A DNA stretch of 64,000 nucleotides. It comes from Candidatus Omnitrophota bacterium. GTDB taxonomy: Bacteria; Omnitrophota; Gorgyraeia; DTHP01. Both the position numbers and the translations under genes were made by a program. A model generated the notes under the pieces. That model did not search any database, was not told the origin of the DNA, and saw only the letters and a program-made list of their open reading frames with translations. The stretch is from positions 2,400 to 66,399 of the forward strand of contig JAMWCW010000001.1 in assembly GCA_023819145.1 (NCBI GenBank), written 5' to 3'. This document shows positions 5,178-46,415 of this stretch, one piece after another. Numbering within the stretch: the stretch's first letter is position 1; the number at the start of each line of letters is the position of its first letter.

Positions 5178-5179
5178 GT

Positions 5180-7969: not shown

Positions 7970-8016
7970 AATTTACTAAATCATAGAATAATCGTTTGCA
8001 TATGTCAATAAATTTC

Positions 8017-8045: not shown

Positions 8046-8091
8046 AAAATACCTAATTTTACATTTTGATTTTCACACTTTTGGACTTTTT

Positions 8092-8166
8092 GGCCCCATC
8101 GTCTAGCCCGGTCTAGGACGGGAGATTCTCAGTCTTCAAACACCGGTTCAAATCCGGTTGGGGCTA
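8092..8166 (+). tRNA. tRNA-Glu, anticodon CUC
   Basis: Acceptor GGCCCCA/TGGGGCT (G1.U72) plus A73. 'TCGTCTAG' D-arm typical of tRNA-Glu. Anticodon stem GGAGA/TCTTC with loop TTCTCAG. 4-nt variable loop. T-arm ACCGG-TTCAAAT-CCGGT. Confidence 0.7.
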
Positions 8167-8179
8167 TTAGGAGGAACAA

Positions 8180-14478: not shown

Positions 14479-15916
14479 ATGTCATTAAAGCAAAAATTTA
14501 ATTATGTGTTTCTCTTTGTCTCGATATTGTTTTTTACTTTTTTTTCTACAAATTCAATAAGCGCATTTTTTTATTCCCAGAGTCTACCTCTTTTTAATCC
14601 CGATTTAAACACACCCCTTTTACAATCTTCCGAACAGCGGTCACAATTAAACATCCAGACCATTCAGCGCGAGCAGAGCAATTATTTTTTTATATAACAT
14701 TGGTATAGACCCTGATACTAACCTTCCGCATAACTATGTTTTTGTCAAAAGTGATGGTGAATTGGAAATAGGATTCTACAATACCCCCACGGATATTGGG
14801 TACTACCTAGCATGTCTGGTGGGAATAGCAAAGGGAGATATAAGAAATGATACCGTCAGTCAAACAGATGCCATCAACAGACTAATTCATGCCTTGGAGG
14901 TTCTTAAATCCGCTCCCAAAAAAGATGGTTTACTTTATTGGTATGATATTTTTTATCCTGAGATAAAAATCTCTCCTACAAATAGTTATGTCTCAGCAAT
15001 AGATAATGCATTTTATTCTGCAGCATTGGGTTTGATTATAGGGGCTTTTATTGACGACCAAAGCCAGTCGGCGCAGAGACTTGTAAATTTGGCTTTTGAA
15101 CTACTTGCTGAACAGAAAGAAGGTTGGTCTCAACTTTATGACCCAGAGAGAAAACTTTTGCTTGGAGGTTATTCAACAACTGGCGAAGACCCTTTGTACT
15201 ATATAGACCGGGCATACAACGAAGGACGTTTGGCAACGCTGATGGCAATAATTTTGGGAGATGTTCCGCGGGATGCTTGGGAGAATTTAGAAGAATTTTA
15301 TTTAGATTATACCTTATCTCATGGCAAAAAGATGAAAATTCTTGCCCCTTGGGAAAGCGCTTTCCAGGCATGGATGCCGTTGGTCTTTGTGCCCGAGATG
15401 GAATGGTCTCCTCAAGGATTTAAGATTGCCCACCAGAGATATTTAGAAGTACAGATTGACTGGGCTCAACGGGAAAATATGCCTGCTCTTTACGCCGAAT
15501 GTTCCGACCCTTTTACGAAAGATAAATATCAATATATTACAGGTATAGCCATACCTGGTGCCTCCGAGTCTTCTGCGTGGGGTGTGCCCATTCGCTCCGA
15601 TATAGGTTCAGTATATGCAATTGGACTTGCTTATATGGTAGATGAAAAAGTTGGAGAAGATTTTTTTGCCAAATTAATTACGAGGTTTCCTGAAATAAGT
15701 TCTACGCTAGGTTGGTTTGATTCAGTGGGAAGGAAAGGAACAGAACCAGAGGTTTTTTGGGCTACGAGTAGGGCTTATGTGGCCAAGAACCAATTTGTAT
15801 TACTTTCTGCCCTGAATTACCAAAATAACCATCGCTATTTTACACGATTTTTAGAGGTTATAGGAAAATTAGAGTATATAAGAAGTCTTTATAATAACAA
15901 ATCATTTAATTTTTAA
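14479..15916 (+). pseudogene. (alpha/alpha)6 GH-like paralog of 11396 ORF lacking the CBM module; reading frame broken at a T7 homopolymer (ORFs 14479-14697 and ~14651/14762-15916)
   Basis: Signal-peptide ORF 14479-14697 ends '...SNYFFI*' inside 'tattttttta'. The downstream frame reads 'IIFLYNIGIDPDTNLPHNYVFVKSDGELEIGFYNTPTDIGYYLACLVG', homologous to 'WLYFKNSVDRKTHLPVDWIDLDETKEYRIGDYTSPTNIGLYFLCLVG' of the 11396 ORF. Removing one T from the 7-T run fuses the two frames. Confidence 0.5.
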
Positions 15917-15920
15917 TATA

Positions 15921-20557: not shown

Positions 20558-23500
20558 ATGAAAAATTTGGCAAAGAAAATAATTAGCTTACTACTCGTGG
20601 AATTATTCTTATTTTCTCAGACAAATTTTGGACTTACAACTCTTTTATCACCTCCACCACAACATTTATCAGTAAATAATAATCAAGATAATCAAACTCT
20701 CTTATTACCACCACCTCTTTGTGTTGATCAACAGTCATCTTTTCCCTCTTCTGTGGTGAATATACCTGAGGAGAGGATTAGAGCAGAACTTAAACCTTTG
20801 ATTGAAAAATATCTTGAAGATACCAATAGATCGTTGAATGATTTGAATACTGTAGTTAATAATTTCAGCTATTTAGTAATAGGAGGAGATGATGGTTTAG
20901 ACCTTTTCGCCTTAGAGGAAGTAAAAGCCATATTAGAAGACTCTCTTACACGACAACTAGAAACCCCTTTAGCTCAGTTTTTAGGAAAAGCTGTGCTTGA
21001 TTTAAGCCAGCGCGAAGCGGTAGTTAAACTTTCTGCCTGGAGTGGTTTATATAAAGCGGTAGGAGGATTTTTAAACAGGGACTTAAAATTAGAAGATATA
21101 AAAGACCAAAAAGCGCTCAATGATTTTGCTTTGCTGATAGCAGAAAAAGGCTATGCTTTGGGGGGTATAAAAAGGGTTTTGGGAGATGAGAAGGTAAAAG
21201 CACTTTATAGTTTAGAGGAAATATGCAATCTGCTTTCCCAGTTGCGCGGAGGCGAAACAACCTTGACCTTATTACAGGCGTTAAACGGAAATTTGCCCTC
21301 AATAAACAATTTTACTCCTTTTTCAGCAATCCCAACTGGTTATGAAGGAGGATTCAGTTTATCAGGTAGCCGGCGTAGTCCAGCTGATGCGGAGATTGGA
21401 TTTATTGTGCCTTCCCTGGAGTTAACAAATATTGCCTTCAAGATAAAGATAGATTTAGAAGAAGGTAGTGTTATGCCCGCAGTTAAATTAGAACTGGTTG
21501 ATGCCCAGGGTAATAAAGCGACTACTACCTTAGATGAGGTTACAGATTCGGGTAAGGAATATACAATAAGTAGAGACAGAGATGATTTTAAAATAGATCT
21601 AATAACTACAGCATTTGACTGGAGTAAGATAGAACGAGTTAGCTTATTTTTAGTTACCGGTGGAAGTTCTCAAGGAAAAATAACCTTGAGTGGATTGGAC
21701 GCTTTTTTACTTAGAGAAAAAAAAGAAGAGGTGTTATCAGCCGAGAAAATAAACTTTTTACTTAATTATGGGCTTTTGGGACTTAAGAAATGGGAGTTAC
21801 CTCTGGATATAGAGTTTATCAAATACATCGGTCAACTTTTAGACCATGAAACTACACGGAAAATGGTGGCTAACTGGATGGCGGTTCTACCTTATGCTCC
21901 TCAGCTCATTTGGCGTGATTTGTTTATGGAGGGTTGGAATATTAAGGATGAAGGCATCTTGGGCTATCTTACACTTACTGCCTTAGAGAGGACCGGGAAG
22001 AATAAACTCAGTCCCGCAGAGATATTGGCGACCATTCAATCCCTCGTAAGTGAATTTGAAAAGGGTGATTTTGGGATAAGCGAGGATAGGGTCTTGGTGC
22101 AATTAATGGAGAATGCTTTGGGAAGAAAACTTGATTTTAAATCTTATATGGATGTTATGGCATACCGCTACTGGAGTAAATTAAGAGATTTATTGGGTCA
22201 GGAATTTGTTAGCGAAAAATTAAACAGCCGTAGTTTGGCTAAGAGCTTTCCAAAACTTGGAGATAAAATCGAACTCATAAGAAGATTAGCTTCGGCAATA
22301 GGATTTGATATAAAACTTATGACATCTAATCCTGATACTTGGGATTGGTTCTGGAAAGAAATGGCAATAGGCACCTCCCCAGATATGATTGTGGATATAA
22401 TTTGGGGAGGTTTTGTCTTTAAAGAATTACTCGAAGGAACTCTCTGGATAGGCGAAATAGATGTGCACCATCATATCGAACAGCCTTTCTGGAGATATTT
22501 TGTGGAATATCTTCCTTATTCCGGAGCTTCCAAAGAGCAGGTAGTGAAATTTATTTTAGAAAAATACCGAAATTTACCTTATGATTCGGTAGCAGTGGGT
22601 TTCCCGGAAGTAGCTTCCTACGGAATTACTACTGCAGGTAGAACTTCCTATAATGTAGAGGCGCAAGGTCATCCTTTTACCGCGGATGAAACTAAGAGAA
22701 TGCTTTTGCTTTATCCAGCGATAAACCAGTTACTTTCCCAATTAATCGGTCTTCCTCAGCAAACCGCGCCTGTTTTGAGCATTAGAAGTTTCTTCACCGA
22801 TGAGCTTGATAGGTTGTTAAATTATTTTCTGGAAGCGCGGGATTTCTCCAGCGGAGCGATGGCTGATGCCTTGAGTGGAGTAGATAATTCTACGGCTGCC
22901 GGAGGATTTTTAGTGATGGCGGCAATCATTGCTGCAGAAGTGGGGAAGATATCAAAAGATGAGGCTAATAAGATTATTGGTAATTTCGTAAAATTTATCT
23001 CCGTGACCCAGAAGATGCATGGTTTGCTTTCCCATTATACACGGGGAGGAACAGCAGAGCGTGCAGGAAATTCAGAGTTTTCACTTATTGATACTTATTT
23101 AGCAGTTTCCGCACTCATTGCTTACCGAAATTGGCAAGGTGCAGAACCTGAAGTAGTAAAAGCAATTAACGCTTTTTTAGGTGCGGTTCAACTGGAAGCA
23201 TTGCAGGTACAGGCTAGAACGACAGGACTAATGGCCCGGGGTGGTATTTTGAACTTTGGGGTTACACCCGAAAGGGGTTTTACCGGAGGAATAGTAGATT
23301 TTTATAACGAATATATTCTCTGCTATCTTATTGCCATTGGTCAGACAGATAATCCAAATTTTGCCAGAGATATGGCTTTTTGGTTCTATAAAGGCATCAC
23401 CCGTAAACAGGGAAGCGGTGTTTCGGAAGAAGCATTTACTTATCCCTTTGAGAACTCGCTGTTTCAGTTTCAATATCCTTTGGTTTTTCTGCCGATGATG

Positions 23501-26500
23501 TTTTTAAGCGACATTGGTAGTGAATTCGGCACAACTGACTTGAATCATTTTCGTAACGCCGTAAGCGCCTTTTTAAATACCCATGCCACTGCGGTTAAGG
23601 AAGGAGATAAATTTCGCTCTTTTAACTATCATTCTTGGGCGATGAATGCTTCCGCTGCTTTAGCGAGTTATTATTCAATGGTTATAGGGATGCCTCCCCG
23701 GGATAAAGATGGAGGGAAGAGTTATTATGATGGTACTATTTCTCCCAATGCTACCTTTGGCGGTTTGCCGTTTATGCCTTATCTTTCTTACCAATCTCTG
23801 CGCTATTTGACACTTGCTTTTCCCCAGGCACAGGGTAGATATGGGTTTGTGGATTCGCTAAATCCCGAAAGAAACTGGTTTTCTCCCACCTATTTCAGTT
23901 TAGGTCAGGGGCTTGCTTTAATGGGTATCTGGGATACGCTTAATTACGGAAGATTAGACCGGGAATCTGCCTGGAGCCTAAATTTAAGAGATAAATTCTA
24001 CCTAAAATCTTTGTTTGAATTAGGATTTAGAGAAGATTTAAGCCCGCAGTTTAGTGCAGTATATCAAGAGCTAATAAACGGTGCTTTAGGGATAGAGGAA
24101 GCAGTCAAGGCGATAGTTACGGAAAAGGATTATGCTGTTCTTCGGGAATATCTTACCAGTAAAGGATTAGATACTACTGTTTTGCTTCAGAAATGGCAGG
24201 AAATTGGTCCTTGGGGTTCAAGTTTAGAAAGAGGGGCAGTTATTTCCTTTATTCGGTCTAAAATCGCCGATGGCAGATTGGATAATGCCGAGATTCAGGA
24301 AATTCTGAGGCAAGCAAGGAGTATTGCTGATTACAACCTCATTGCCGAAGTGCTTTTGGGTGACCCTCAAAAAAACAATGGTTTAATGCAATGGGCATAT
24401 GATAAAGAGAGGAATATCTATAAATTAAAATCCGATGAAGGTAGCCCTAACTATCTTCTGTTTCCGCTTCTAATGCAGTTGAGAATAGAACAGACCAAAT
24501 TGACTTTGAGTAATGTTTTCTCCGAACCGGAGATAGTTGGCAAACAAGGCCTTGACCTTGCTCAAGCCTATCTGGATAAGGTAGAAGAAATTGCTCGCGC
24601 TGCCCAATTACCTGATGAACGGGCAATTTTTGCTTTTCAACATTTTACAGAGAAGGCAGAAGGATATTATGCAAAAGCGATTGAGATATTGCAGGGTTTA
24701 ATTGATGGTAAGATTGATTCTTTAGAGGAAGTTAGAGCCCAAGCACTATTATTTACCGCTTACAAGAAAAACTGGCAATATGACCAGCAGAAAGAAGCAT
24801 TTAAACTCTTAGCCCAGGCAGTAGAGGGTAATGTTACTTTTAGGACAGAGGCAATAGATATTATCGCCTCTTATTTTGGTAGAGAAATTCTTGCTGATTA
24901 TTACCAAGCATGGGTCCATCCCCAAAAAGCTCTTACTTCAGAACAGGAGACAAAAGTAAAGGAGGCGATAGCCACTGCTCTGCAATATCCTGACCCCGAT
25001 AATCCTCCTGCTGGGAAAAGTTATGTAGATGTTTTGCTTAATAATAAGATTTCCCTTATCTTTTTTAGGGAAAAATACTTAAGGCAGCCGGTAGTTATCA
25101 ATCCTTATGATGCTACGCAGGCCGGGCAGATAGGCTATTTTGTAACTCAATTGTTCACCAAAGGGGCAAGCGAAGAGCAAATAGTGGGAATGTTGACCGA
25201 GATGCTCAGGTATAAACCTTTGGTAGAATCTGTTTTGGGAAGGGAATTAGACCTTCAGAATAACCGCAATGATTTATATTTGCTTTCCTTAGCGGTTGCA
25301 CTTTCTCTACAAAATCTTCCTGAAGCGCGCATTGCAGAAATTATCGGAGGGACTATAGTTTCTCCAGAGAATTTAGAAACGGCAATTGCAGCGGTTCAGA
25401 ATTTTATGCTTGCCCGAGATTTAAGGGCTTTTGTGGATAAAACCTTACAGCTTTCTCGCTATCTGAGAAATAAAGAAAATGTTCAGATTGCTTTTGATCC
25501 TCTATTAGGAAAGTTTTTGGGACAGGATTTGCCCACAGAAAAATGGACCGATTTTCTTATAGATATCTTGACTGTAGATAATATAGAGGAATATTTGACT
25601 TACAAGGTCATTGGGGAATTAAATAAGATTGAAAAGATAAATATTGAAAAAAACGCTTTTTATGAAAGGAGGACAACCCGCTATCGCTATAAAGATGCCT
25701 ATTTTGGTGACAATACCAATCTGGATTTGGAAAATGAAAGGGTAAGAGAAATACTTGATAAGGCTTTTATTATTAAAGCGGAATTAGAGGCTATCTATCA
25801 AACTATAATAAATGTAGAAGAATCATCTCTTGACCATCTTTTACTTACTTCTTTGGTACGGCTATCTTTAGATTCAAAAGTGAATATAGAGGAGTTATTA
25901 GGCTCATTTACTGCTACATTGAGAAGTAAAGGTATGGTTGAGGAAAAAGCGCAGAAAATCTTTCTTACCTTTATTTTACCCAATATGCCTTTGAGTTTAA
26001 TAAGCAGAGAAGGTTTTGAACAGTATGTAGCAGATGTTGTTCAATTGGCAGGAGAACTGCGTCTTTCTCTTTCAACTGCAAAAGATTTAGCCGTGGTTTC
26101 AAGTATAGTTAATCTTAAATATGCGGGGATAGAGAGTATTCCTCAAGATATAAAAGAATTATCAGTCCACTACCAAGCCCTTTTGCGGAGTCCGAAATTA
26201 GCCGATTTAAGAACTGCCCTTGGCCCTTGGGCAGGAGTAGTTTTGCCCGAGTTAGAGCGGATATTGGGCATAGATTTAACCCTTGCTACTGGAGAACAAA
26301 TTTCCCAAGCAAAGCAGTGGCTTAATGTTTTAACCCTGCCTGAATTTTCTCAAGTAGCTTCTGCGGATATAGATTTTCTTAAGGTCTGGGCGAATATTGC
26401 GAAAGAAGCAAAAATTATTGCCCAACTAAGAAAAGAATTAGAAGGATTTAAAGATTCTGCCATTAGGTTCTTGGAACAATATGTTCTCGGTGAAACCTTC

Positions 26501-29500
26501 AATTCTTCTAATCCACAACATCAGGAGAAATATTGGGAATGGATAGGATATAGAATGCCTTATGTAATGGAATGCATGCATAAGTTTATGAAATTAGATA
26601 CTGTTGAAGAGCAGAAGAAGATGTTTGTTCTGGGAAGTTCAGTTGATGCCACCATATTCAAACTTTCTACTCCTCAAACGCTTACTGTTTTGAGGCGTAG
26701 AGAGATTAGCCCTGTGGTTCAGGCATTGTATGGTGAAGGGGATATAAGAGAAGCCTACCGTTTTGGGGATAGCCCGATTACTGAGGACAATTATGCCTAT
26801 CGAGCACTGTTAAGCTATTATGCGGAATTGACTGACAAAGAAGGCAATTACCTTCCCTTATCTTTACTGGCGACTACTCTTCTTTTAGAAAAGGAACTGG
26901 TGCGTGATGCAGGATTAGAAGCGCTTTATCAGGCACATTTTAATCTTGTTACCGGGCTTCCCACAAGAGAGGGAGTTCCGCTTACCGGAGCGATAGATGT
27001 TTCGGGAATTAGCGGTTTCTATGTGAGCCAGATGGAACAATGGGCGGGTTTAGGTGCATTAGATTATCTTTTGGCATATTTAATGAAAACAGTTTCTCTT
27101 AGCGAGGCGGAGAGGTTTGTGAATATGGGAGTTGCTTCGGCTATTGATGTATTTTTAACTACCGGTCAATTACCACCAATCCAAGGATTACCTTCAGGAA
27201 TTATGGAGATATTCGCACCAGCGTTTGGAGACTGGCTGTTGTGGATTAAGGAAAATTATGCTAAGGCACTGCTCGGATTTTCAGAAGAAGATGTAAGGAG
27301 GATAATTAAAAATGATACTTTTGGCTTTATTACCAAAGCGCTTAACCAGGCATATGCCTTAAAAGAGAGCCTTGCCAGCGGAGATTCGGCAAACATAGAA
27401 TCTGTTTTAGTAAAATTATTTAATTTAGATGGCAATCCTGCGTTAATGGAACATTTAAGAAAATTGTTGGAAGAAGATTATAATCCAGAAGACTCAGTAA
27501 AGGGATTTGATTCCTTGCGCTTACTTGCTCAGATTGCCCAGATTTCTACAATAGTACGACCCTCTGAGGACGGGAAGTTCCAGAATACAAGTATAGGAAG
27601 AGTGGGGTTGAGAAAGGAACTGGAGATTTTAAGCGCCGTAAGGGGAATTGTAGAAAAAGAATTCGGCACACTTGATTTATTAAGGAGAATAGATGCAGTT
27701 TGGGTTATTTCTGGTTTTGCCACTCCGGTTATCTATGGAGAGAAGACCATTGGTCAAATAGAAACCGAGATTAAAAAGATAGCCACTGCTTACCGTATGC
27801 TGAGAACGGTTTTACCTCAGGAGGTTTTTGCAAGTACTGACCCCTTGAGTTTACTCTCCAGTCCCTTTATGTCAGGGGTGCTTTCTTTTATTAGCCAGAG
27901 ATTGCCAAGTCCTGCATTTAACATTACTTTTGATGTGGACTTAGAATACATTGTTGCTTACTTAACCGATGCTCAAGAAAAGCAGAGAATCGATAGGTTA
28001 TATAAGGCAATAGTTGATGATAAAGAAGGAGTTTTAAAGTCTTTCTTGATAAATCCTGTAAATACCAAGGATGTAAACCAGGCAGGCTTTGTCAGCGCTC
28101 TGGTAAATCGTGCTTGGAGACTGATAAAGGATAAAGGTTTAACTGAAGAACAGGCAATTGGAGAAGTAAACAAATGGCTTGAAGGAATTAGAGAATTTTT
28201 GGTATCCGCAGGGCTTCATACCGCGGATTATGTGGCAGAAATCATTGCTGATTATCGTAAGATGGGGCTCTGGTCGTATTACTTGTCGTTCATTAATCCC
28301 GTGGCTGAACAGGAATTAGCCCATGCACAATTTTCACCCACTTTTCCTGATTTTGTTTCCCGTTACAATTATTCCTTAGATGCTTATCTTCAGACGCTTC
28401 CTAATTACTCAAGGATACCTGAGGCACAGCGCACAGAATTAAAAAGTTTATGGGATAAGGTGTTAAGTAATCCTACAAATAGTGGGGCTCTGGAACGCTT
28501 TAGAGATGTCCATGAGAGGATTACGGGTTATTCTGCGCGTGTTTTTGTGGAAAATTTTGTAATTGACCAAGTTTTAAAAGGGAAAGATGTAAGTAGTTTA
28601 ATTGCTGTGGCTAATGGACTCTGGAGTGATTTTAGAATTAAAGATTCACGAGATTTAGAGAAAATTATCTGGCAATTGGGTTATAAACCTGATTGGTCGG
28701 ATAGTGATTGGCAGAAATTTAAGGCGCTTTATGAAAGATACTTAGAAACCACACTTTTTACCTCACAAGCTTATGTTTTGCCCACAGGAGAAGAAGCGCA
28801 AGCCTTAGAACTCTTCCTTAGTTATTATCTCTCTTCTCGTTTAGGAGAAAACCGCATGAGTTCTTTAGAGGCAATGCGTTTCCATCAATGGGCGGTTTTG
28901 GTAAATACTTTCGGGAAAGGAACTACTATTGAAGAAAAATGGGAAAACTTCTTTAAAGAAGTTGTTTTGCCCATGCGTCAGGAAATTGAAGCTTTAATGC
29001 CTGATTATTTTGGACGTGACCCAGTAACTGGAAAAACCTATTTTGATAAATACAATCCCGTGCATGGAGGGGTAGTAGCTTACTTTATTGAGCAGGCACT
29101 GTTTAAGATGTTTATGAATAGAGAACAGGTGAACAAACAATGGAGTCAAATGCCTGCACAAAGAGGATGGCTGGTAGGCCCACGTTTTGACCAAAAAGGG
29201 AATAGAATCGCTCAGAAGGTTTCTAATCCATATAACAATCCTCAAGAATTCTTAAGACTTGTTTTGGATGAGGTTTTAGCAGACTTAAAAGTGGCGGTTG
29301 AACTTAAACCCTATGTAGAAAAAGCAAGGATGGCCTTTATTGATGTTACTGACCCAAGAATGGCAGGAATCTTATGGTTCCATGTAAATACGCTTAAAGA
29401 CCCGCCACGCGACTGGACGCAGTTTAGTTCCTTGGGCACTTTGAAATCTCACTTAGAAAAAGAAGCGCGCATCATGCTTACGCTTGCCCAGCAAGGGCGA

Positions 29501-31891
29501 TACTTGGATATCTTTAGTCCCGAAGATATGGGAGAGCTATCCTATTATGCTCAAGAAGGAGGAATGCCTTTAGGAAAATCTCTACGTTTAGAAAAGTTGA
29601 CTCCGGAAAATGCCTTTGTCTATTTTGCCTATCCACAATGGTCCAAACTTCTTTTAGGGCAAACAGATAGTGCCTACGCCAGGATAAATGAACTTGCCCC
29701 AACCATTAAGAGATTAATCGCTTCTAATCCCTACTGGAGAGATGGGCTAACACACTGGGTTACTGATGGTTATGGTTTTGACTATGCGTTTCTTCTTCAG
29801 ATTAAAGAAGAATTAGGTATTGCTTATTTATTGCAAGCTGAGGTAGCAAAGTTCTTTGGGGTGGAAAAACTTGATTTCAATAACCAAGAACATTTGGCAA
29901 TGCTCTGGGAATATACGCAGCGCACCTACTTGAAAGCAAAAGGAAAACTAGAGGAAGAAATCCGTGCCGGAAGAGTAGCCAATGTGGATTCCGAACGAGG
30001 CTGGTCAATGCTTGTAGGTGATACAGGGAAGAATGTTTCTAAGATTGTTTTAGAAAAATATGGTCTGGACTTAACCTCCCCTGGCTGGGATAAGTATTCT
30101 CCTCTTCGGTTCTGGATTTTAGAGATGGCAAGCGCAGTCATACCTGAAGTTAGTTATGAACTTCGGGTTTTAAAGGCGGTAAGACCTATTGTAGAGACTA
30201 TTGAAAAAAGAGCCCTTAAGTTAAACGATAGCTTAGATATGCGACTTTTAGAGAATTATAAAGAGATTGCGCTTGCTTTGGGAAGAGAAATTGTGTTGAA
30301 TGCACATCGTGAAGAAATAGAAAATTTAGGTAAAGAGGCAATTTTAAGAACTTATGAGAAGGTAGTGCGTGGATTAATCCAGAAGGGAGATACCAAGGAA
30401 AAAGCAGAGGCCAGAGTACTTTTTGCTTATCGTGACCAAAGAGAAGCATTAGGAAAAACTGTCCTGTTTGCTAAATATCGAGAAGAAGCAGTTAATTTAG
30501 GAGTTCAAGAATTGGCAAGAAGGGCAGGTTTAATTACTCAACAGGCACCACCTACTCAACAAGCACCTGTAGAAGTAAAGCCTATTGAGCCTCCTAAACC
30601 ACCGGAAGTTCCCCAACCACCTGAGACCCCCAGACCACCGGAAGTTCCCCAACCACTAATTCCTCCTGAGCCTGAGCCTGAGCCTGAGCCGTTTGCACCG
30701 CAAACTCTTCCTACCGTACCAACGGTAACCATTACTCAGACGCCTTCTATCACTTTAGCTTTTGAAATCAGCAACGGCTTAAGCCTGACCTGGTCAAGGA
30801 TAAAAGATTCACAAAACAGAGAAGTTTCTAATTATCAGTGGGAAATTTTGGACGCAAAAGGAAATGTTGTGCGTAGTGGAGAAACATCAGCTTTAAGCAC
30901 TTGGATAAAATATGAGGGACTACTCAGTGGAAATTATCTTTTCCGTGTAAGAGGAGTAATAAGAGAAAAAGGCATATTTATTGAAGGCGAATGGAGTGAA
31001 CACAGTTTTAGTGTAGAAGGAGCACGAGAGCAAACTACTGAAACACCAGCTGCGGAAGGCAAGTTAAGTCCTGTGGTATTGGCTCCTTTTGTTTTTAAAG
31101 GAACAATTAGTGGAGGAGGAAATCTCAACGTTGGAGAGGAGAGTATCTTTAATCTTTGGGGGAATTATAATGAATTAGATAGTGGGTATATAATAATAAG
31201 AGAGAAAAATACAGGGAGAGAAATAGAAAGAATTGTCGTAAATAGCGGAGACAATCGTTATCGTTATTCCTGGACTAATGCCGGACAATATGTGATTCAG
31301 TTGGTAGGTACGAAAGCAGGTGCAACTTATAATTCTAATGAAATAGAGGTTTGGGTAAAACAACCAACTAGTGCAACGAGTGTAACCAGCGCAACGACTA
31401 CTTCTCGTGTACCCGTAGCAGTTAATTGGTCAGCTTATCAATCACCCGAAATAAATCCCCGTGTAAGTGATTCTGAGAATGTCCGCCAGCGAGTTAGCCA
31501 TTATCAAGGAACTACTTCCAAGGATTCCACAGCCCGTTTCTGGAGCGAAAAAGTTTTTGCGTCTATTTTGGCTACCGTAAGAGATAGACAAAAAGCATTT
31601 GTTTTAACCGATATGACAATGTTTGCTTTCACATCTGTTTTTGGAACTTTGCCCAATATGACTGAAAAAGGAGCAGGAATCTGGCACAATGAGATAATTA
31701 GAGCACCAACACAACAACAGTATATCAGTGCAGGTGTTTTTGCTCAGAATTTAGTTATTGATTGGACAACTAAAGCTACAAATTATTTCCGCATGAATTA
31801 TTACTCTGGTTGCAACGCGGATAATTTAATTAAAAAGGCAATTGAAGAGGCAAACCGCTTTGTCTGGGAACGTCAGCATTTATATTTCTAA
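20558..31891 (+). CDS. giant secreted protein (~3777 aa), largely alpha-helical, with a beta-sandwich cassette near the N-terminus, a Pro/Glu-rich linker and an Fn3-like C-terminal region
   Basis: Uninterrupted 11.3-kb ORF. Strong RBS GGGAGGAAAGGGAGG before the ATG at 20558 (the track ORF begins at an upstream in-frame ATG at 20480). Signal peptide 'LLLVELFLFSQTNFG'. No catalytic motif recognised. Confidence 0.7.
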   Translation: MKNLAKKIISLLLVELFLFSQTNFGLTTLLSPPPQHLSVNNNQDNQTLLLPPPLCVDQQSSFPSSVVNIPEERIRAELKPLIEKYLEDTNRSLNDLNTVVNNFSYLVIGGDDGLDLFALEEVKAILEDSLTRQLETPLAQFLGKAVLDLSQREAVVKLSAWSGLYKAVGGFLNRDLKLEDIKDQKALNDFALLIAEKGYALGGIKRVLGDEKVKALYSLEEICNLLSQLRGGETTLTLLQALNGNLPSINNFTPFSAIPTGYEGGFSLSGSRRSPADAEIGFIVPSLELTNIAFKIKIDLEEGSVMPAVKLELVDAQGNKATTTLDEVTDSGKEYTISRDRDDFKIDLITTAFDWSKIERVSLFLVTGGSSQGKITLSGLDAFLLREKKEEVLSAEKINFLLNYGLLGLKKWELPLDIEFIKYIGQLLDHETTRKMVANWMAVLPYAPQLIWRDLFMEGWNIKDEGILGYLTLTALERTGKNKLSPAEILATIQSLVSEFEKGDFGISEDRVLVQLMENALGRKLDFKSYMDVMAYRYWSKLRDLLGQEFVSEKLNSRSLAKSFPKLGDKIELIRRLASAIGFDIKLMTSNPDTWDWFWKEMAIGTSPDMIVDIIWGGFVFKELLEGTLWIGEIDVHHHIEQPFWRYFVEYLPYSGASKEQVVKFILEKYRNLPYDSVAVGFPEVASYGITTAGRTSYNVEAQGHPFTADETKRMLLLYPAINQLLSQLIGLPQQTAPVLSIRSFFTDELDRLLNYFLEARDFSSGAMADALSGVDNSTAAGGFLVMAAIIAAEVGKISKDEANKIIGNFVKFISVTQKMHGLLSHYTRGGTAERAGNSEFSLIDTYLAVSALIAYRNWQGAEPEVVKAINAFLGAVQLEALQVQARTTGLMARGGILNFGVTPERGFTGGIVDFYNEYILCYLIAIGQTDNPNFARDMAFWFYKGITRKQGSGVSEEAFTYPFENSLFQFQYPLVFLPMMFLSDIGSEFGTTDLNHFRNAVSAFLNTHATAVKEGDKFRSFNYHSWAMNASAALASYYSMVIGMPPRDKDGGKSYYDGTISPNATFGGLPFMPYLSYQSLRYLTLAFPQAQGRYGFVDSLNPERNWFSPTYFSLGQGLALMGIWDTLNYGRLDRESAWSLNLRDKFYLKSLFELGFREDLSPQFSAVYQELINGALGIEEAVKAIVTEKDYAVLREYLTSKGLDTTVLLQKWQEIGPWGSSLERGAVISFIRSKIADGRLDNAEIQEILRQARSIADYNLIAEVLLGDPQKNNGLMQWAYDKERNIYKLKSDEGSPNYLLFPLLMQLRIEQTKLTLSNVFSEPEIVGKQGLDLAQAYLDKVEEIARAAQLPDERAIFAFQHFTEKAEGYYAKAIEILQGLIDGKIDSLEEVRAQALLFTAYKKNWQYDQQKEAFKLLAQAVEGNVTFRTEAIDIIASYFGREILADYYQAWVHPQKALTSEQETKVKEAIATALQYPDPDNPPAGKSYVDVLLNNKISLIFFREKYLRQPVVINPYDATQAGQIGYFVTQLFTKGASEEQIVGMLTEMLRYKPLVESVLGRELDLQNNRNDLYLLSLAVALSLQNLPEARIAEIIGGTIVSPENLETAIAAVQNFMLARDLRAFVDKTLQLSRYLRNKENVQIAFDPLLGKFLGQDLPTEKWTDFLIDILTVDNIEEYLTYKVIGELNKIEKINIEKNAFYERRTTRYRYKDAYFGDNTNLDLENERVREILDKAFIIKAELEAIYQTIINVEESSLDHLLLTSLVRLSLDSKVNIEELLGSFTATLRSKGMVEEKAQKIFLTFILPNMPLSLISREGFEQYVADVVQLAGELRLSLSTAKDLAVVSSIVNLKYAGIESIPQDIKELSVHYQALLRSPKLADLRTALGPWAGVVLPELERILGIDLTLATGEQISQAKQWLNVLTLPEFSQVASADIDFLKVWANIAKEAKIIAQLRKELEGFKDSAIRFLEQYVLGETFNSSNPQHQEKYWEWIGYRMPYVMECMHKFMKLDTVEEQKKMFVLGSSVDATIFKLSTPQTLTVLRRREISPVVQALYGEGDIREAYRFGDSPITEDNYAYRALLSYYAELTDKEGNYLPLSLLATTLLLEKELVRDAGLEALYQAHFNLVTGLPTREGVPLTGAIDVSGISGFYVSQMEQWAGLGALDYLLAYLMKTVSLSEAERFVNMGVASAIDVFLTTGQLPPIQGLPSGIMEIFAPAFGDWLLWIKENYAKALLGFSEEDVRRIIKNDTFGFITKALNQAYALKESLASGDSANIESVLVKLFNLDGNPALMEHLRKLLEEDYNPEDSVKGFDSLRLLAQIAQISTIVRPSEDGKFQNTSIGRVGLRKELEILSAVRGIVEKEFGTLDLLRRIDAVWVISGFATPVIYGEKTIGQIETEIKKIATAYRMLRTVLPQEVFASTDPLSLLSSPFMSGVLSFISQRLPSPAFNITFDVDLEYIVAYLTDAQEKQRIDRLYKAIVDDKEGVLKSFLINPVNTKDVNQAGFVSALVNRAWRLIKDKGLTEEQAIGEVNKWLEGIREFLVSAGLHTADYVAEIIADYRKMGLWSYYLSFINPVAEQELAHAQFSPTFPDFVSRYNYSLDAYLQTLPNYSRIPEAQRTELKSLWDKVLSNPTNSGALERFRDVHERITGYSARVFVENFVIDQVLKGKDVSSLIAVANGLWSDFRIKDSRDLEKIIWQLGYKPDWSDSDWQKFKALYERYLETTLFTSQAYVLPTGEEAQALELFLSYYLSSRLGENRMSSLEAMRFHQWAVLVNTFGKGTTIEEKWENFFKEVVLPMRQEIEALMPDYFGRDPVTGKTYFDKYNPVHGGVVAYFIEQALFKMFMNREQVNKQWSQMPAQRGWLVGPRFDQKGNRIAQKVSNPYNNPQEFLRLVLDEVLADLKVAVELKPYVEKARMAFIDVTDPRMAGILWFHVNTLKDPPRDWTQFSSLGTLKSHLEKEARIMLTLAQQGRYLDIFSPEDMGELSYYAQEGGMPLGKSLRLEKLTPENAFVYFAYPQWSKLLLGQTDSAYARINELAPTIKRLIASNPYWRDGLTHWVTDGYGFDYAFLLQIKEELGIAYLLQAEVAKFFGVEKLDFNNQEHLAMLWEYTQRTYLKAKGKLEEEIRAGRVANVDSERGWSMLVGDTGKNVSKIVLEKYGLDLTSPGWDKYSPLRFWILEMASAVIPEVSYELRVLKAVRPIVETIEKRALKLNDSLDMRLLENYKEIALALGREIVLNAHREEIENLGKEAILRTYEKVVRGLIQKGDTKEKAEARVLFAYRDQREALGKTVLFAKYREEAVNLGVQELARRAGLITQQAPPTQQAPVEVKPIEPPKPPEVPQPPETPRPPEVPQPLIPPEPEPEPEPFAPQTLPTVPTVTITQTPSITLAFEISNGLSLTWSRIKDSQNREVSNYQWEILDAKGNVVRSGETSALSTWIKYEGLLSGNYLFRVRGVIREKGIFIEGEWSEHSFSVEGAREQTTETPAAEGKLSPVVLAPFVFKGTISGGGNLNVGEESIFNLWGNYNELDSGYIIIREKNTGREIERIVVNSGDNRYRYSWTNAGQYVIQLVGTKAGATYNSNEIEVWVKQPTSATSVTSATTTSRVPVAVNWSAYQSPEINPRVSDSENVRQRVSHYQGTTSKDSTARFWSEKVFASILATVRDRQKAFVLTDMTMFAFTSVFGTLPNMTEKGAGIWHNEIIRAPTQQQYISAGVFAQNLVIDWTTKATNYFRMNYYSGCNADNLIKKAIEEANRFVWERQHLYF
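30599..30688 (+). repeat. in-frame tandem repeats in the Pro-rich linker of the giant protein: 22-nt direct repeat x2 and (CCTGAG)x4 encoding (PE)4
   Basis: 'ccaccggaagttccccaaccac' at 30599-30620 and 30635-30656. 'cctgag' x4 at 30665-30688. Protein reads 'KPPEVPQPPETPRPPEVPQPLIPPEPEPEPEPF'. Confidence 0.6.
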
Positions 31892-31907: not shown

Positions 31908-31936
31908 TTGACAAAAGGTGAAAAGCATGTTATATT
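31908..31936 (+). promoter_or_regulatory. extended -10 promoter (TTGACA, 17 nt, TGtTATATT)
   Basis: gattgacaaaaggtgaaaagcaTGtTATATTttat. Shares 'TTGACAAAA...AAAAGCATGTTATAT' with the 54988 promoter. Confidence 0.45.
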
Positions 31937-32123: not shown

Positions 32124-34355
32124 ATGATGTACAAGAAGATTTTGATGGTAATAGCAGTAGCGGTGATGTTAGTTTCCATCTGTGGCATTAGAGAAATAGA
32201 AGCATGCGGTAGAGGGCCAACGCAATCTCCGATTATGATTGCTTTAAAATATCTTGTAGAGATTTGTGAGGCTAATAAAATAGACGCTTCTATAGGCAAT
32301 ATTTTATCGGCTGATGAAACTATTAGATATCTTGATGCTATTATTCCTTCTATAAGAGATGATTTTACTGCTATTGCCAAAGACGTAGATTTATATTTTA
32401 GATTAGTACGAGGATCTTGGGTTCCTGAACAGGTAATAAGCGTTGTAGAAGCATATTTGAGGCATAGAGGATACGGCGGTATGCTGGATAATGCTTTGAG
32501 TTATTTTGCAGAGGACTGGAGTTTTTTACCTGAAGAAGGCATAGATTTAACTGCCCTATTTGGTGGTCTTGAGAATTTAGAGAAAAAATCCACAATGGAG
32601 ACTTTGACTGTTACTACTAACATAAATCCTTCAGGGGTTATTAGTCTTACCACAACGAGACAAATGACCGAGAAGAGTCTTATTGATTGGCTTCGTGATT
32701 GGTTTATTTTTAACCGAAAGATGGGAATTGGGTATAATTCTTTTGTTGATATGTTTAAAAACCATCTTCCCATCATAGTTAATTCCCCCGATTTAGACAA
32801 TTTTTTCAGGGCAGCAGGCTATACTGGCGGGTTTGATAAAGGAAATTGGTTCCATGTTTCTGAGGCATTGTACTGGGCAGGTACCCTACAGATTTTATCA
32901 TCGAACACTCCTGATACTTACCAGCGCGAAGGCTTAAATTTATTAAAAGAACAGGCAGAGGCTATTCTTGGCAAAACACTGGGTAAGGGTTCCCGATTTA
33001 GTACGCAAGAGGCAATAGAGGTGACCAGTAAGATGATTCGGGCAGGAACAGAATTAATTTCTTACGTAGAGAAATATATCGGGAGAAAAATTGATTTAGC
33101 CCAGAGTTACGACAAAGGATTGCTTTCTTCATATGTGGATGGGATTTTTGGCAGGATAAGGAATTTATACTATAATCCCGCCACGAAAACTTGGAAACCA
33201 GTAGATTACAACAGCGTCTTTACCAAGGCGATAAATGATATGAAAAAGGTAATAGATATTGGAGTGAATAAGATTGGGAATAGCGTTTATCTTGCCTTCT
33301 TTAAAGACAAAGGCGGTTCTGATTATATGGCGAAGATGAGGGCTTACAATGTGGTTATGGGATCGCAATGGGATGAAGCCCAGCACGTGAGGGCAATTCT
33401 AAATTCCTGGTCGTATCATGTTATAAATATAGAAGACTATACCGGAAATCCTACAGGAGCGCTTAACCTTGTAAAAACACTACTTGAATATGATAAAGGC
33501 GAAGGCAAAGTGTTTAAGGATAAAGTTGATACCTTTTTGGGGATTAAACTCAATCTGCTTAGAGAATTCAGGCATCAACAGGCATATAGTAATATGGTCT
33601 CTTTAATTGGCGAGGTGCTTTCGCGAGCAGATTATTTTAAGATTAGCCAAGGTAATATAGACCAAGCATATAACGCAGTTAAGGAGATGCTCGATTTAGC
33701 CCAAGGAAAAGACACCGGAGGAAAGACGTTGTTAGATAAAATAGCTGGATATCTATTTCCAAGTATTTCAGGTGCGCGTAGAGATAGTTTAGAGATGACT
33801 TCAACTCTCTACGGAGGCACAATCTCGGGTATAGCCACCTTCTGGACGCAGGTGCTTTACGCCCGGACAAAACAACTGGGAGATTTTAACAAGGCCATGG
33901 CTTATGTTGATGCCCAACTATCCGCAAGAAAAGAAATAAGGCAAGCGTTAGAGAAGAAATTCGGTATACCTTTAATGATAAATCCTGCGGAAATTAAATA
34001 CGAAGATTTAAGACTACTCAATTTGTTTGAATCTGTTTTGGATGGAGATTTGGCTAATTTGGAGAATACTAAAAGGTGGGTAATAGATTATATTAATTCG
34101 GATAAAGTGAGATTTGCGAATTTTATCTTGCAGAACGCTCAACAAGTAGAGCTTGACCTCGAGGCTTATAAGAAGGCAAATGTAAGACAGCCACTTTATC
34201 CGGAATATCCTACCGCGCCTATCTTGACCGCGGATGTAGGCTTAAGTGGTTATGCCTTTGAGCTTCCGTTGCCTGTTTTAGAAGATAACAATGACAATAG
34301 TGGTTTGGCTACTGCACCACCGTATTTAGGGGATTTTTCATCAATTTTTAATTAA
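32124..34355 (+). CDS. secreted protein, 743 aa, unknown function
   Basis: RBS AGGAGGG. Signal peptide 'ILMVIAVAVMLVSICG'. No recognisable domain. Confidence 0.5.
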   Translation: MMYKKILMVIAVAVMLVSICGIREIEACGRGPTQSPIMIALKYLVEICEANKIDASIGNILSADETIRYLDAIIPSIRDDFTAIAKDVDLYFRLVRGSWVPEQVISVVEAYLRHRGYGGMLDNALSYFAEDWSFLPEEGIDLTALFGGLENLEKKSTMETLTVTTNINPSGVISLTTTRQMTEKSLIDWLRDWFIFNRKMGIGYNSFVDMFKNHLPIIVNSPDLDNFFRAAGYTGGFDKGNWFHVSEALYWAGTLQILSSNTPDTYQREGLNLLKEQAEAILGKTLGKGSRFSTQEAIEVTSKMIRAGTELISYVEKYIGRKIDLAQSYDKGLLSSYVDGIFGRIRNLYYNPATKTWKPVDYNSVFTKAINDMKKVIDIGVNKIGNSVYLAFFKDKGGSDYMAKMRAYNVVMGSQWDEAQHVRAILNSWSYHVINIEDYTGNPTGALNLVKTLLEYDKGEGKVFKDKVDTFLGIKLNLLREFRHQQAYSNMVSLIGEVLSRADYFKISQGNIDQAYNAVKEMLDLAQGKDTGGKTLLDKIAGYLFPSISGARRDSLEMTSTLYGGTISGIATFWTQVLYARTKQLGDFNKAMAYVDAQLSARKEIRQALEKKFGIPLMINPAEIKYEDLRLLNLFESVLDGDLANLENTKRWVIDYINSDKVRFANFILQNAQQVELDLEAYKKANVRQPLYPEYPTAPILTADVGLSGYAFELPLPVLEDNNDNSGLATAPPYLGDFSSIFN

Positions 34356-34431
34356 TATCAGCATATTTACTTCCCTCTTCAAGAGGGAAGTAAATTGAGG
34401 GCTTATTAATAATTTTTTAAAAGGGGGTATA

Positions 34432-36243
34432 ATGAAAAGAGGGGGATTAAATATTCTTTGTGCAGTGCTTTTTTTCCTTCCGGCAGGATATTGGGGAGAT
34501 AATTTGAAAATTTCTGTTCTTTCTTCACAACAGACTCAAGATGCCCAGAAAGTGGCTGCGATAGCTTCTCCATCATTAAGCGAAATGGTTTCAGGACGTC
34601 CCACTGTTGAGACACCTTTTTTGGCTGGACCAGAGTATTATCTACCTTTTATTACTTTGCGCAAAAATTTGGATAAAAAGCACATTTGTTCTTGGGTTCC
34701 TCGGCAGTCCTTTTGGACGGGATGGCTCGAACCTAACAATTACTGGACAAGAATTGGTGACTTTATCAATCTCGATTATTTGTTGGAAGAGTCGGAAATA
34801 AATAGCGGAAAATTCATTCTTTATAATTTAGAAATCATTGATAGACTTTTACAAATGGACGTTAAACAAATCGCCGGCAAAAGGGTAAAGAAGATTGAAG
34901 AAATTTCTCCACTTAAAACTATTGGGATTGGCAGTCGCTTTCCCGAGGACAAAGATAAAATTTACCTTGACCAATTACCGGGGATAAAGGGAGTAAAATT
35001 TATTTTAGAAGATAATTCCGAGATTGTAGTCTTACCATCTTTTTACCAACAGCCCACTTTGGCAATCTTAACTTACGGCGGTAATAATAGAGACAAGAAT
35101 GTTTCGGTTGCCATAACCCAGAAATTGGAAGAGAGCTTTCTGGATACGGTGCTTAACCAGGTAATAATCTCAGCTAAGGAGGAGATTAGAACCCAGACCT
35201 TGGAAGATGTGGTGAAGAAATATCTCTTTGGGGAGATACCTGCACAACTTAATTATGTCCAGTGGAAACGCTTGGTAGAGGAGATGGAGAGAGTAGAAAC
35301 TGAATTAAAGGAAGTGACGGTTACTACCTCTTTAAGAGAGCTTTTAGGAAATGTTTTGCCCTCAATAAACAATTTTACTTCTTTTTCAGCAATCCCAACT
35401 GGTTATGAAGGAGGATTCAGGTTATCAGGTAGCCGGCGTAGTCCAGCTAATGCGGAGATTGGATTTATTGTGCCTTCCCTGGAGTTAACAAATATTGCCT
35501 TCAAGATAAAGATAGATTTAGAAGAAGGTAGTGTTATGCCCGCAGTTAAATTAGAACTGGTTGATGCCCAGGGTAATAAAGCGACTACTACCTTAGATGA
35601 GGTTACAGATTCGGGTAAGGAGTATACAATAAGTAGAGACAGAGATGATTTTAAAATAGATCTAATAACTGGAACGGCATTTGACTGGAGGAAGATAGAA
35701 CGAGTTAAATTATCTTTAGTTACCGGTGGGAGTTCTCAAGGAAAAATAACCTTAGAGGATATCGATTTAAAAAAGGAATCTCCTGCTTCTGTTTCTTTAG
35801 GGACGATGATGGCAGAATATAAGTTACGGGCATACCTTAAACCTTATGTTGCCAAATTCTTTGACCTGCCTGTTTATTCTCCCTATTTTGACACCAAACC
35901 CATCGTTAAAAAATGGTTTGATTGCTTTGCCAATGCTACCTCTGCTGGCGTAGTCAAAGGAGATTTTTCTGTAGCGGAGGTACTTGGGTCTATAGGTTAC
36001 TGGGGTATGCTTAAAGCATTTCTTACCTCTCTTCGTCAGATTATAACCTTGCCTTCTAATCCTGTAGAGGAAAAAATACTTTTAGATTTTGGTGGAGATA
36101 TTTATTCTTTTGTGCAGGGACTTGACTTGTCTTCGGCAGTTCCCGAGGGAGTGGAGATAGAGTCATTGACTTTTGAAACAAAATTGCTATTATTACCCGA
36201 GGATATTTTGCTTTTTATAATGCGGGAGGCTTATGAAATATAA
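34432..36243 (+). CDS. secreted protein, 603 aa, carrying the same ~130-aa beta-sandwich cassette as the giant protein
   Basis: RBS AAGGGGG. Signal peptide 'LNILCAVLFFLPAGYWG'. Residues ~310-440 ('LPSINNFTSFSAIPTGYEGGF...GSSQGKITL') are near-identical to giant-protein residues ~245-375. Confidence 0.5.
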   Translation: MKRGGLNILCAVLFFLPAGYWGDNLKISVLSSQQTQDAQKVAAIASPSLSEMVSGRPTVETPFLAGPEYYLPFITLRKNLDKKHICSWVPRQSFWTGWLEPNNYWTRIGDFINLDYLLEESEINSGKFILYNLEIIDRLLQMDVKQIAGKRVKKIEEISPLKTIGIGSRFPEDKDKIYLDQLPGIKGVKFILEDNSEIVVLPSFYQQPTLAILTYGGNNRDKNVSVAITQKLEESFLDTVLNQVIISAKEEIRTQTLEDVVKKYLFGEIPAQLNYVQWKRLVEEMERVETELKEVTVTTSLRELLGNVLPSINNFTSFSAIPTGYEGGFRLSGSRRSPANAEIGFIVPSLELTNIAFKIKIDLEEGSVMPAVKLELVDAQGNKATTTLDEVTDSGKEYTISRDRDDFKIDLITGTAFDWRKIERVKLSLVTGGSSQGKITLEDIDLKKESPASVSLGTMMAEYKLRAYLKPYVAKFFDLPVYSPYFDTKPIVKKWFDCFANATSAGVVKGDFSVAEVLGSIGYWGMLKAFLTSLRQIITLPSNPVEEKILLDFGGDIYSFVQGLDLSSAVPEGVEIESLTFETKLLLLPEDILLFIMREAYEI

Positions 36244-36258
36244 TAAAAGGAGGGACTT

Positions 36259-40494: not shown

Positions 40495-40529
40495 ATTATG
40501 TGTTTATAATAAGAAAGGAGTGGTTAAAA

Positions 40530-43754: not shown

Positions 43755-43766
43755 AAAGGAGCAATA

Positions 43767-46397: not shown

Positions 46398-46415
46398 AAA
46401 TAATGAGGGATTTTT

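Follow-up and report, generated by a model that had tools for sequence, protein, structure and literature searches.

A 64-kb stretch of DNA from Candidatus Omnitrophota (hereafter, the window) contains a giant gene at positions 20558..31891 of its plus strand. The encoded protein of 3,777 residues is probably an exported, multi-module enzyme that cleaves β-1,2-glucan as part of a glucan-harvesting locus; from sequence comparisons, we put the probability of this reading at about 0.6. The original prediction for this gene, made from the DNA letters alone, held that the protein has no recognisable catalytic domain. This proved wrong, as the protein matches Pfam family PF10091 (E=5e-24) and contains a barrel that resembles glycoside hydrolase family 144 (GH144) and has intact catalytic residues. 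The barrel belongs to the SGL (β-1,2-glucanase) clan (GH-S: GH144, GH162, GH192-194; plus GH189), and by homology this known catalytic clan appears here in an architecture and a locus that are confined to one phylum and of unprecedented size.

The catalytic barrel

The barrel and its key residues are located as follows (all window positions).
22790..23932, plus strand: SGL-clan (GH144-like) (α/α)6-barrel, residues ~745-1125, found by Pfam, phmmer against the PDB, profile searches, AlphaFold/Foldseek, and residue conservation
23090-23092, plus strand: D845, key barrel residue
23309-23311, plus strand: E918, key barrel residue
Within the barrel, plus strand: F969 and Y1038/1039, key barrel residues

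A scan of the whole protein placed PF10091 ("putative glucoamylase", GH144-type), the only Pfam family that it carries, at residues 914-1124, with 85.5 bits against a cutoff of 27. When the protein was compared with all PDB sequences using phmmer, the sole real matches covered residues ~745-1125. The best was 5GZH, the GH144 endo-β-1,2-glucanase of Chitinophaga pinensis (E=4.4e-11), followed by 4GL3, 4QT9, 3EU8, 5Z06, and 8XUL; of these, 5Z06 is a GH144 sophorohydrolase and 8XUL is XcSGL, and related structures from Bacteroides are among them. When the family and the window paralogues were combined into one profile, its best PDB match was XcSGL 8XUL (7.4e-57), followed by other GH144 enzymes, GH189/Cgs, GH192, and GH194.

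The AlphaFold model of residues 490-1170 is almost all helix and has an overall predicted local distance difference test score (pLDDT) of 58.6, with values of 80-95 in the first half of the barrel. Using this model, Foldseek returned 20 matches in the PDB at E<=0.001, every one of them a β-1,2-glucan enzyme; GH144 ranked at the top (E about 1e-10), followed by GH192, Cgs/GH189, GH194, and GH162. The target-normalised TM-score was 0.68-0.73 against single-domain GH144 chains and 0.42-0.43 against the 698-residue 5Z06.

In characterised members of the clan, CpSGL E211 (XcSGL E239, TfSGL E262) is the general acid and CpSGL E142 the candidate base, and the clan is defined by a Phe (XcSGL F286, CpSGL F268) and a Tyr (XcSGL Y367, CpSGL Y330) (PMC12102758). 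In the alignments, E211 corresponds to E918 (motif FYNEY), E142 to D845 (motif SLIDTY), F268 to F969, and Y330 to Y1038/1039; the general-acid column falls on the mutated Gln of crystal 8XUL (read as E239Q from the entry title). D845, E918, and F969 are invariant in all homologues aligned there (P0004, P0005, P0007, P0008, and the L002 open reading frames [ORFs]), which are only 26-38% identical overall. D845 and E918 stay invariant once the window paralogues join the alignment, and the Tyr is invariant at 1039 in an eight-sequence alignment. By its (α/α)6-barrel fold and all four conserved residues, the giant protein falls within the SGL clan. GH144 is its best match by sequence and by fold; at 16-19% identity, similar to between-family values, we describe the barrel as GH144-like. 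Identity between families inside the clan is below 20% (PMC12102758).

The conservation of these residues bears on the idea that the giant protein is mainly structural, that is, an adhesin, envelope scaffold, or spacer in which the barrel would be a non-hydrolytic, lectin-like glycan binder. Helical sequence that bears no catalytic signatures makes up over half of the protein, its immunoglobulin (Ig)-like and carbohydrate-binding module (CBM)-like parts and its Pro-rich linker are typical of surface proteins, and adhesion roles have been proposed for large Omnitrophota ORFs (PMC10066038). However, the acid, base, and clan-defining residues are strictly conserved across proteins that have diverged this far, a pattern not expected of a purely binding barrel. 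The gene also sits among enzymes that belong to a single pathway and whose order is conserved. We consider a mainly structural role improbable.

The surrounding locus and the proposed function

The genes around the giant gene that are relevant to its function are listed below; individual ORFs are named by their start positions.
8180..10633, plus strand: GH94 phosphorylase without signal peptide
10759-11337, plus strand: CBM11-like secreted protein
11396-13324, plus strand: SGL-clan/GH144-like enzyme (PF10091 + DUF3131)
13424-14155, plus strand: second CBM11-like protein, small and secreted like the first
14762-15916, plus strand: SGL-clan paralogue
15921-18503, plus strand: 860-aa protein, CBM11-like towards the N-terminus and OpgG/OpgD-like (MdoG, GH186) towards the C-terminus
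32124..40494, plus strand: downstream partners, comprising a 743-aa protein, a 603-aa protein, and a 1411-aa SGL-clan paralogue (PF10091)

Three further SGL-clan paralogues thus stand beside the giant gene. The best solved relative of the GH94 protein is the phosphorylase domain of Cgs (E=2.3e-166), and the OpgG/OpgD-like part of ORF 15921 matched Pfam MdoG (8e-32) and PDB entry 1TXK (4e-11). Past the 1411-aa paralogue lie large proteins without a family and then CofD-, ROK-, PGI-, 6-phosphogluconolactonase (6PGL)-, and Prs-like proteins. The families found here (GH144-like, GH162-like, GH186, and Cgs-like GH94) are ones that have been characterised on β-1,2-glucan, according to PMC12102758 and other papers. 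The large neighbouring ORFs, described earlier as giant envelope proteins, are not a random set; with the giant gene they form an operon-like, conserved, β-1,2-glucan-related gene cluster.

Conservation of the cluster was seen on two other contigs. L003, a 267-kb JGI contig, repeats the order FIST (minus strand), GH94, CBM11, PF10091 enzyme, second CBM11-like region, giant gene, two unknowns, and PF10091 paralogue, with a giant protein that is merely 26-32% identical to that of the window. On L004, a PF26157 (SGL_GH162) protein flanks the giant homologue, behind which come homologues of ORFs 32124, 34432, and 36259. Since the gene order is kept at such divergence, we argue that these genes form a functional unit. 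A single 2,121-aa gene at positions 22487-28852 of L004 corresponds to ORF 34432 (603 aa) and ORF 36259 (1,411 aa) fused, which supports a functional link between these two. At positions 7779-9778 of L003, an extracytoplasmic function (ECF) sigma factor and a zf-HC2/FecR-type anti-sigma factor are encoded directly 5' of the giant gene, in place of window ORFs 14762-20355. ECF sigma/FecR-like pairs are typical of substrate-sensing utilisation loci.

In the mechanism that we propose, the barrel would cleave β-1,2-glucosidic bonds of linear or cyclic β-1,2-glucan outside the cytoplasm, and the β-sandwich modules would assist in holding the glycan. A role as spacer or scaffold is suggested for the helical bulk; it is the least certain of these roles and is given as a placeholder. 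The released sopho-oligosaccharides would be cut further by the paralogous SGL-like and OpgG/D-like enzymes and, after uptake, the cytoplasmic GH94 enzyme would phosphorolyse the products to glucose-1-phosphate for the sugar-phosphate enzymes encoded downstream. The most speculative step concerns the source of the glucan, which might be the periplasm or envelope of a Gram-negative host or prey. Osmoregulated periplasmic glucans (OPGs) and cyclic glucans are the main natural β-1,2-glucans. Omnitrophota have been proposed to be predators or parasites, and their large proteins have been proposed to attack surface polysaccharides of target cells (PMC10066038, 10.1101/2023.11.21.568195). No paper that connects periplasmic glucans with predation by bacteria turned up in a literature search. 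A more far-reaching version would make the giant protein the core of an Omnitrophota-specific harvest of β-1,2-glucan from Gram-negative hosts or prey, with new glycan-handling or envelope-penetrating functions in its helical modules M3-M6 and with the RR[IL]K-bearing sugar-phosphate enzymes described below as a membrane-tethered or exported metabolic module coupled to this harvest; we regard this combination as doubtful.

Several points weigh against an exported β-1,2-glucan-cleaving enzyme. Substrate specificity is extrapolated from the behaviour of the whole clan, because identity to the characterised GH144 enzymes is only 16-19% in the Foldseek alignments, and Group 4 of the SGL clan has no known substrate (PMC12102758). 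In the AlphaFold model of residues 490-1170, confidence is poor (pLDDT 30-60) over the second half of the barrel. CpSGL D139 and D400 correspond to Ser and Gly in the giant protein, neither being conserved; D135 aligns to E840, so the acidic character is retained at this position. Mutation of D135 or D139 abolishes CpSGL activity, both positions vary across the clan, and the D400 mutant keeps activity (PMC12102758). About 60% of the giant protein gave no functional match in Pfam, PDB, profile, and fold searches. The GH94 protein scores nearly as high against cellobiose phosphorylases (484 bits) as against Cgs (559 bits), and no transporter, β-glucosidase, or type II secretion genes were found within the 64-kb window. 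Finally, OpgG-like and Cgs-like proteins are classically tied to glucan biosynthesis, and a role at the cell's own envelope fits them equally well.

This last point leads to the possibility that the protein stays in the periplasm and trims, transfers, or cyclises an OPG-like β-1,2-glucan of the cell itself, together with the OpgG/D-like protein, while GH94 controls or recycles chain length as in Cgs. The OpgG/OpgD-like domain of ORF 15921 falls in a family known for OPG biosynthesis (PMC10514313), and the Cgs domain is, as mentioned above, the best solved relative of GH94. A Sec signal alone takes a protein only to the diderm periplasm, and the LysM domains of homologue P0004 fit attachment to peptidoglycan. 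In addition, the candidate-base column, that of CpSGL E142, holds the nucleophile in GH189, a retaining transglycosylase (PMC12102758). On the other hand, the barrel ranks nearer to GH144 than to GH189 both by sequence and by fold, and the window encodes no glucosyltransferase (OpgH/GT2, GT84) and no polytopic membrane protein. The GH94 protein is free-standing and cytoplasmic and resembles catabolic phosphorylases, the four endo-glucanase-like paralogues and the secreted CBM-only proteins resemble a harvesting set, and the ECF sigma/FecR-like pair lies directly 5' of the giant gene in L003. Remodelling of the cell's own glucan is the main alternative, albeit one that we think unlikely.

The proposed exported glucan-cleaving enzyme can be compared with several known systems. 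It is like the GH144 enzymes CpSGL (Cpin_6279; 5GZH/5GZK) and XcSGL (XCC2207; 8XUL), and the SGL clan in general, in its PF10091 match, its (α/α)6-barrel, and its catalytic and clan residues. It differs from the GH144 enzymes in its low identity to them, in not conserving CpSGL D139/D400, and in having the helical module M3 fused behind the barrel. Known SGL enzymes have ~430-720 residues and one or two domains (PMC12102758), whereas the barrel makes up ~10% of the 3,777 residues of the giant protein, which is by far the largest SGL-clan protein among those compared (the characterised ones in PMC12102758 have 438-1,142 residues). PgSGL4 of SGL-clan Group 4 (1,142 residues; β-propeller, barrel, and two putative CBMs; PMC12102758) is likewise a multi-domain, signal-peptide-bearing protein that combines a barrel with putative CBMs. 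Its accessory domains are different, and Group 4 lacks an acidic residue at the position of CpSGL E142, whereas the giant protein keeps D845. Cgs, which was matched by both fold and profile searches, is likewise a very large β-1,2-glucan enzyme with an SGL-like barrel between helical regions, but the giant protein has no GT84 or GH94 domains and no multiple transmembrane helices, GH94 being a separate gene.

At the level of the locus, the SGL/SOGP catabolic clusters of Chitinophaga, Listeria, and Bacteroidota (PMC12102758, PMC11842490) likewise combine an extracytoplasmic endo-β-1,2-glucanase with a cytoplasmic GH94 enzyme. Unlike these clusters, the window has no ABC transporter or GH3 β-glucosidase, and its GH94 protein resembles Cgs or cellobiose phosphorylases and is not a recognised 1,2-β-oligoglucan phosphorylase; the window adds the OpgG/D-like protein, the CBM11-like proteins, and several large unknowns. 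The giant proteins described from Omnitrophota (Archaeovorins, dockerin-type proteins, and others; 10.1101/2023.11.21.568195, PMC10066038, 10.64898/2026.06.07.730766) are likewise large, exported, and poorly annotated, with sparse carbohydrate-active domains, and their proposed action on envelope glycans of target cells is a theme shared with the window protein. As defined in the literature, those giants have at least 10-30 thousand residues or ORFs above 20 kb, and the window protein is ten-fold or more shorter; also unlike them, it has no dockerin, TSP3, or lectin repeats, and the window has no type II secretion/pilus locus. GH144 is not mentioned in 10.1101/2023.11.21.568195 or 10.64898/2026.06.07.730766, and our literature search found no paper pairing GH144 with Omnitrophota.

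Large Omnitrophota proteins, although widely noted, have been described as poorly conserved and mostly unannotated (PMC10066038). The giant protein offers a defined catalytic domain whose key residues are intact, a conserved neighbourhood that points to β-1,2-glucans (a rare substrate class), and a size that can be expressed in pieces. The testable hypothesis is that uncultivated, probably host-dependent Omnitrophota process β-1,2-glucans, which occur in Gram-negative bacteria as periplasmic or cyclic glucans.

Export signal, accessory modules, and relatives

The remaining features of the giant gene and its product are as follows.
20558..31891, plus strand: giant gene of 3,777 codons and a stop codon, its product matching NCBI MCM8783172.1 (locus NC818_00110) exactly
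20558..20647, plus strand: signal-peptide-like N-terminus, residues 1-30, from sequence reading and a hydropathy scan
21350..21712, plus strand: β-sandwich cassette, probable CBM11-like module, residues ~265-385, from blastp, hhalign, and a DNA repeat
22025..22789, plus strand: helical extension before the barrel, residues 490-744, kept in P0004, P0005, P0007, and P0008; low pLDDT
24290..26038, plus strand: helical module M3, residues 1245-1827, from homologue alignment and hhalign
26345..27757, plus strand: helical module M4, residues 1930-2400, a separate 727-aa ORF in L002
27827..28378, plus strand: helical module M5, residues 2424-2607, from homologue alignment
28646..30307, plus strand: helical module M6, residues 2697-3250, 66-76% identical in L001 and 45% in L002, predicted all-α
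30539..30703, plus strand: Pro/Glu/Gln-rich linker, residues 3328-3382, QQAPPTQQAP...PPEVPQPPETPRPPEVPQP...PEPEPEPEP
30722..31363, plus strand: two putative Ig-like β-sandwiches, residues 3389-3602 (Fn3-like 3389-3488, PKD-like 3502-3602), sub-threshold matches
31409..31888, plus strand: C-terminal domain, residues 3618-3777, common only to L001 (47% identity)

According to the ORF list and the translation of the window, the reading frame is unbroken up to the stop at 31891. The ATG at 20558 lies 9 nt 3' of a strong Shine-Dalgarno-like GGGAGGAAAGGGAGG; an alternative upstream ATG at 20480, the mechanical ORF start, would give 3,803 residues. MCM8783172.1, to which the product is identical over its full length, is annotated as "hypothetical protein NC818_00110" and comes from a 221-kb contig of a Candidatus Omnitrophica/Omnitrophota metagenome-assembled genome (MAG). 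The GC content of the gene (0.37-0.41) and its strand skew are in line with those of the neighbouring genes. A chance ORF is excluded because of the length at a GC content of 38-41%, and collinear homologues also exist. The large gene for an exported protein of ~3777 residues was thus correctly predicted. So was its lineage, which had been offered as a guess: in addition to the exact match, all named homologues are from Omnitrophota, including Candidatus Kaelpia imicola.

The giant protein appears to be exported, given a Sec-type, signal-like N-terminus (MKNLAKKIISLLLVELFLFSQTNFG) that consists of a basic KK start, a hydrophobic stretch (IISLLLVELFLF), and a polar end (SQTNFG). The motif LxxxE-x-F-L-F-S/T-Q is common to the giant protein and its homologues, and the signal-like pattern is retained in P0004, P0007, and P0008, in line with the signal peptide of the original prediction. 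The hydropathy scan flagged the N-terminal segment and, elsewhere, just one weak segment, which lies within the barrel; no transmembrane segment was found in the protein beyond the N-terminus. A prepilin-type signal was rejected for want of a G-F cleavage motif, and a C-terminal outer-membrane β-signal was rejected upon inspection by eye of the C-terminus, which looks helical. A Glu inside the hydrophobic core is unusual for Sec signal peptides. Such a Glu occurs in the giant protein, the 1084-aa ORF, the 1742-aa ORF, and two of three full-length homologues (P0004 and P0008), the cores being LVELFLFSQ, VVIEIFIFTS, LVILEILLYNQ, VIECFLFSQ, and LIEFFILTQ (window sites 20558-20650, 40530-40640, and 55759-55850).

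The cassette at residues ~265-385 is probably a CBM. Its region is 75% identical over 186 residues to the 603-aa ORF 34432-36243 (blastp), and hhalign matched the cassette to the PF03425-positive CBM11-like proteins of the window (80%, E=1.4e-5, 85 columns). A direct comparison with Pfam, CBM11 (PF03425) included, gave no match even at E<=10, and the predicted N-terminal β-sandwich is thus partly borne out, by its resemblance to the window's own CBM11-like proteins at the profile level but not by a Pfam family. At the DNA level, the stretch 21292-21591 recurs with 99% identity at 35355-35654, within ORF 34432-36243, and the adjoining 80 nt are 93% identical (21292-21687 versus 35355-35753). 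This near-identical 300-nt repeat may stem from a very recent duplication or gene conversion in the locus or, possibly, from a MAG assembly artefact.

Residues ~1170 to ~3320 (~2,150 residues) gave no match in Pfam, NCBIfam, or PDB sequences, and a profile of residues 2399-3337 found nothing among PDB sequences at E<=10. Homologue alignments divide this region into the conserved modules M3 to M6. M3 follows the barrel in every homologue, and in the 1411-aa paralogue (ORF 36259), too, the barrel is trailed by the first ~250 residues of M3 (hhalign, 96% probability); barrel and M3 therefore look like one unit. AlphaFold predicted M6 (residues 2690-3290) as almost all helix with a pLDDT of 59, and Foldseek searches with this model returned nothing at E<=0.001 (best E=0.17). 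The description of the protein as mostly helical therefore agrees with the two modelled tiles (residues 490-1170 and 2690-3290), at a pLDDT of ~59 and for those tiles only. Internal repeats were sought by comparing tiles with each other in hhalign, which gave only a weak match of residues ~633-757 with ~1513-1636 (52-60% probability). A hidden Markov model (HMM) of the best-conserved M3 motif found no more copies in the giant protein, and a repeat motif noticed by eye, D/N..G.[ILV].[FYW][FYW]...G.s.EE[IV], therefore lacks statistical support.

The Pro/Glu-rich linker reported earlier lies at residues 3328-3382. The C-terminal part behind it had been called Fn3-like; Ig-like matches do occur there, but all are sub-threshold (Pfam Por_Secre_tail 0.0054 and PKD 0.021; NCBIfam Por_Secre_tail 0.073). 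The Ig-like segments are partly similar to P0008 and L001. For the C-terminal 178 residues, a word-index protein search found no relatives.

HMMER searches with residues 1130-2329 against 1.84 billion representative proteins gave 11 matches, the query included; seven have 1,932-4,467 residues, and the remaining four, with 495-1,177 residues, are shorter proteins or fragments from contig ends. A scan of GTDB representative genomes found one Omnitrophota contig, 66% identical over residues 2399-3337, word-index searches with tiles gave one homologue apiece or none, and two scans of JGI metagenomes found no relative. The nearest relative is L001. Homologues are collinear with the query: P0004 from the signal peptide on, and P0008 from the β cassette (residue ~309) to the Ig-like part. 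Accessory parts differ among them, P0004 bearing two LysM domains. The family appears, from these searches, to be phylum-restricted and specific to Omnitrophota, and it contains more than 2,000 residues of helical folds without a known match. In L002 (positions 1-9591; GCA_026387065.1, JAPLMJ010000112.1), the giant homologue is called as four ORFs (709+, 881, 727, and 895+ residues). The first break, near 2065-2133, is a +1 frameshift in the barrel, between the Glu and Phe positions, and is either a sequencing error or the mark of a pseudogene; the other breaks lie at module boundaries.

The size of the protein, its export signal, and its repeat-like linker are all that would speak for a conventional RTX-type adhesin or polymorphic toxin, an architecture that the original prediction had named as the contrary outcome. 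Whole-protein scans of Pfam and NCBIfam at E<=1 found no RTX, haemagglutinin, Rhs/YD, toxin, or immunity-associated domain, the profile self-comparison described above showed no internal repeats, and the C-terminus is without relatives in the word-index search. The domain scans and tiling searches effectively refute such an architecture, and we give it hardly any credence.

Other observations in the window

The window is dense in large exported proteins, as had been predicted. The ORFs of 1742, 1411, 1084 (or 1074, if counted from the following ATG), and 860 residues are all present, and 12 ORFs of at least 600 residues with signal-like N-termini amount, by arithmetic on ORF lengths, to ~40.8 kb or 64% of the window. 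The 1742-, 1084-, 743-, and 622-aa ORFs have no module in common with the giant protein (hhalign, >=70%). NCBIfam offered no credible family for the 1742-, 1084-, and 743-aa ORFs; the 622-aa ORF gave only sub-threshold matches to metallo-β-lactamase.

Six consecutive proteins downstream (ORFs 40500, 43767, 46416, 48595, 50516, and 51374; window 40500-52933) have a hydrophobic, signal-like start followed 8-20 residues on by RR[ILQ][KRLI], in the variants LLRRIR, LLRRIK, ITRRIK, IFRRLK, AFRRQK, and SYRRIL. Only nine copies of this motif exist among the 19,164 residues encoded by the 28 window ORFs of at least 150 residues, and six of the nine stand at this post-signal position. The set includes CofD-, ROK-, PGI-, 6-phosphogluconolactonase-, and Prs-like enzymes, types that are normally cytoplasmic. 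The shared motif may serve as a sorting signal or tether the proteins to a membrane, and we know of no described equivalent. Between the sugar-phosphate genes and the 1742-aa gene (52997-54656) lie two small toxin-antitoxin-like pairs: a DUF6036/AbiEii-type nucleotidyltransferase with a 57-aa ORF, and a small nucleotidyltransferase-like ORF with a 141-aa ORF (HEPN-like by eye).

A promoter and terminator scan of the region gave a count of sites not above that in shuffled sequence. One near-consensus sigma-70-type promoter-like site (31908-31936; 11 of 12 matches, with TTGACA, a 17-nt spacer, TATATT, and a TG extension) is located 17 nt past the stop of the giant gene, 5' of ORF 32124. Upstream of the cluster and divergent from it, positions 4245-7969 (minus strand) encode a FIST-domain protein, a GAF histidine kinase, and a response-regulator-GGDEF protein, the FIST gene being kept at the corresponding place in L003, and a tRNA-Glu(CTC) at 8091-8167 immediately precedes the GH94 gene.

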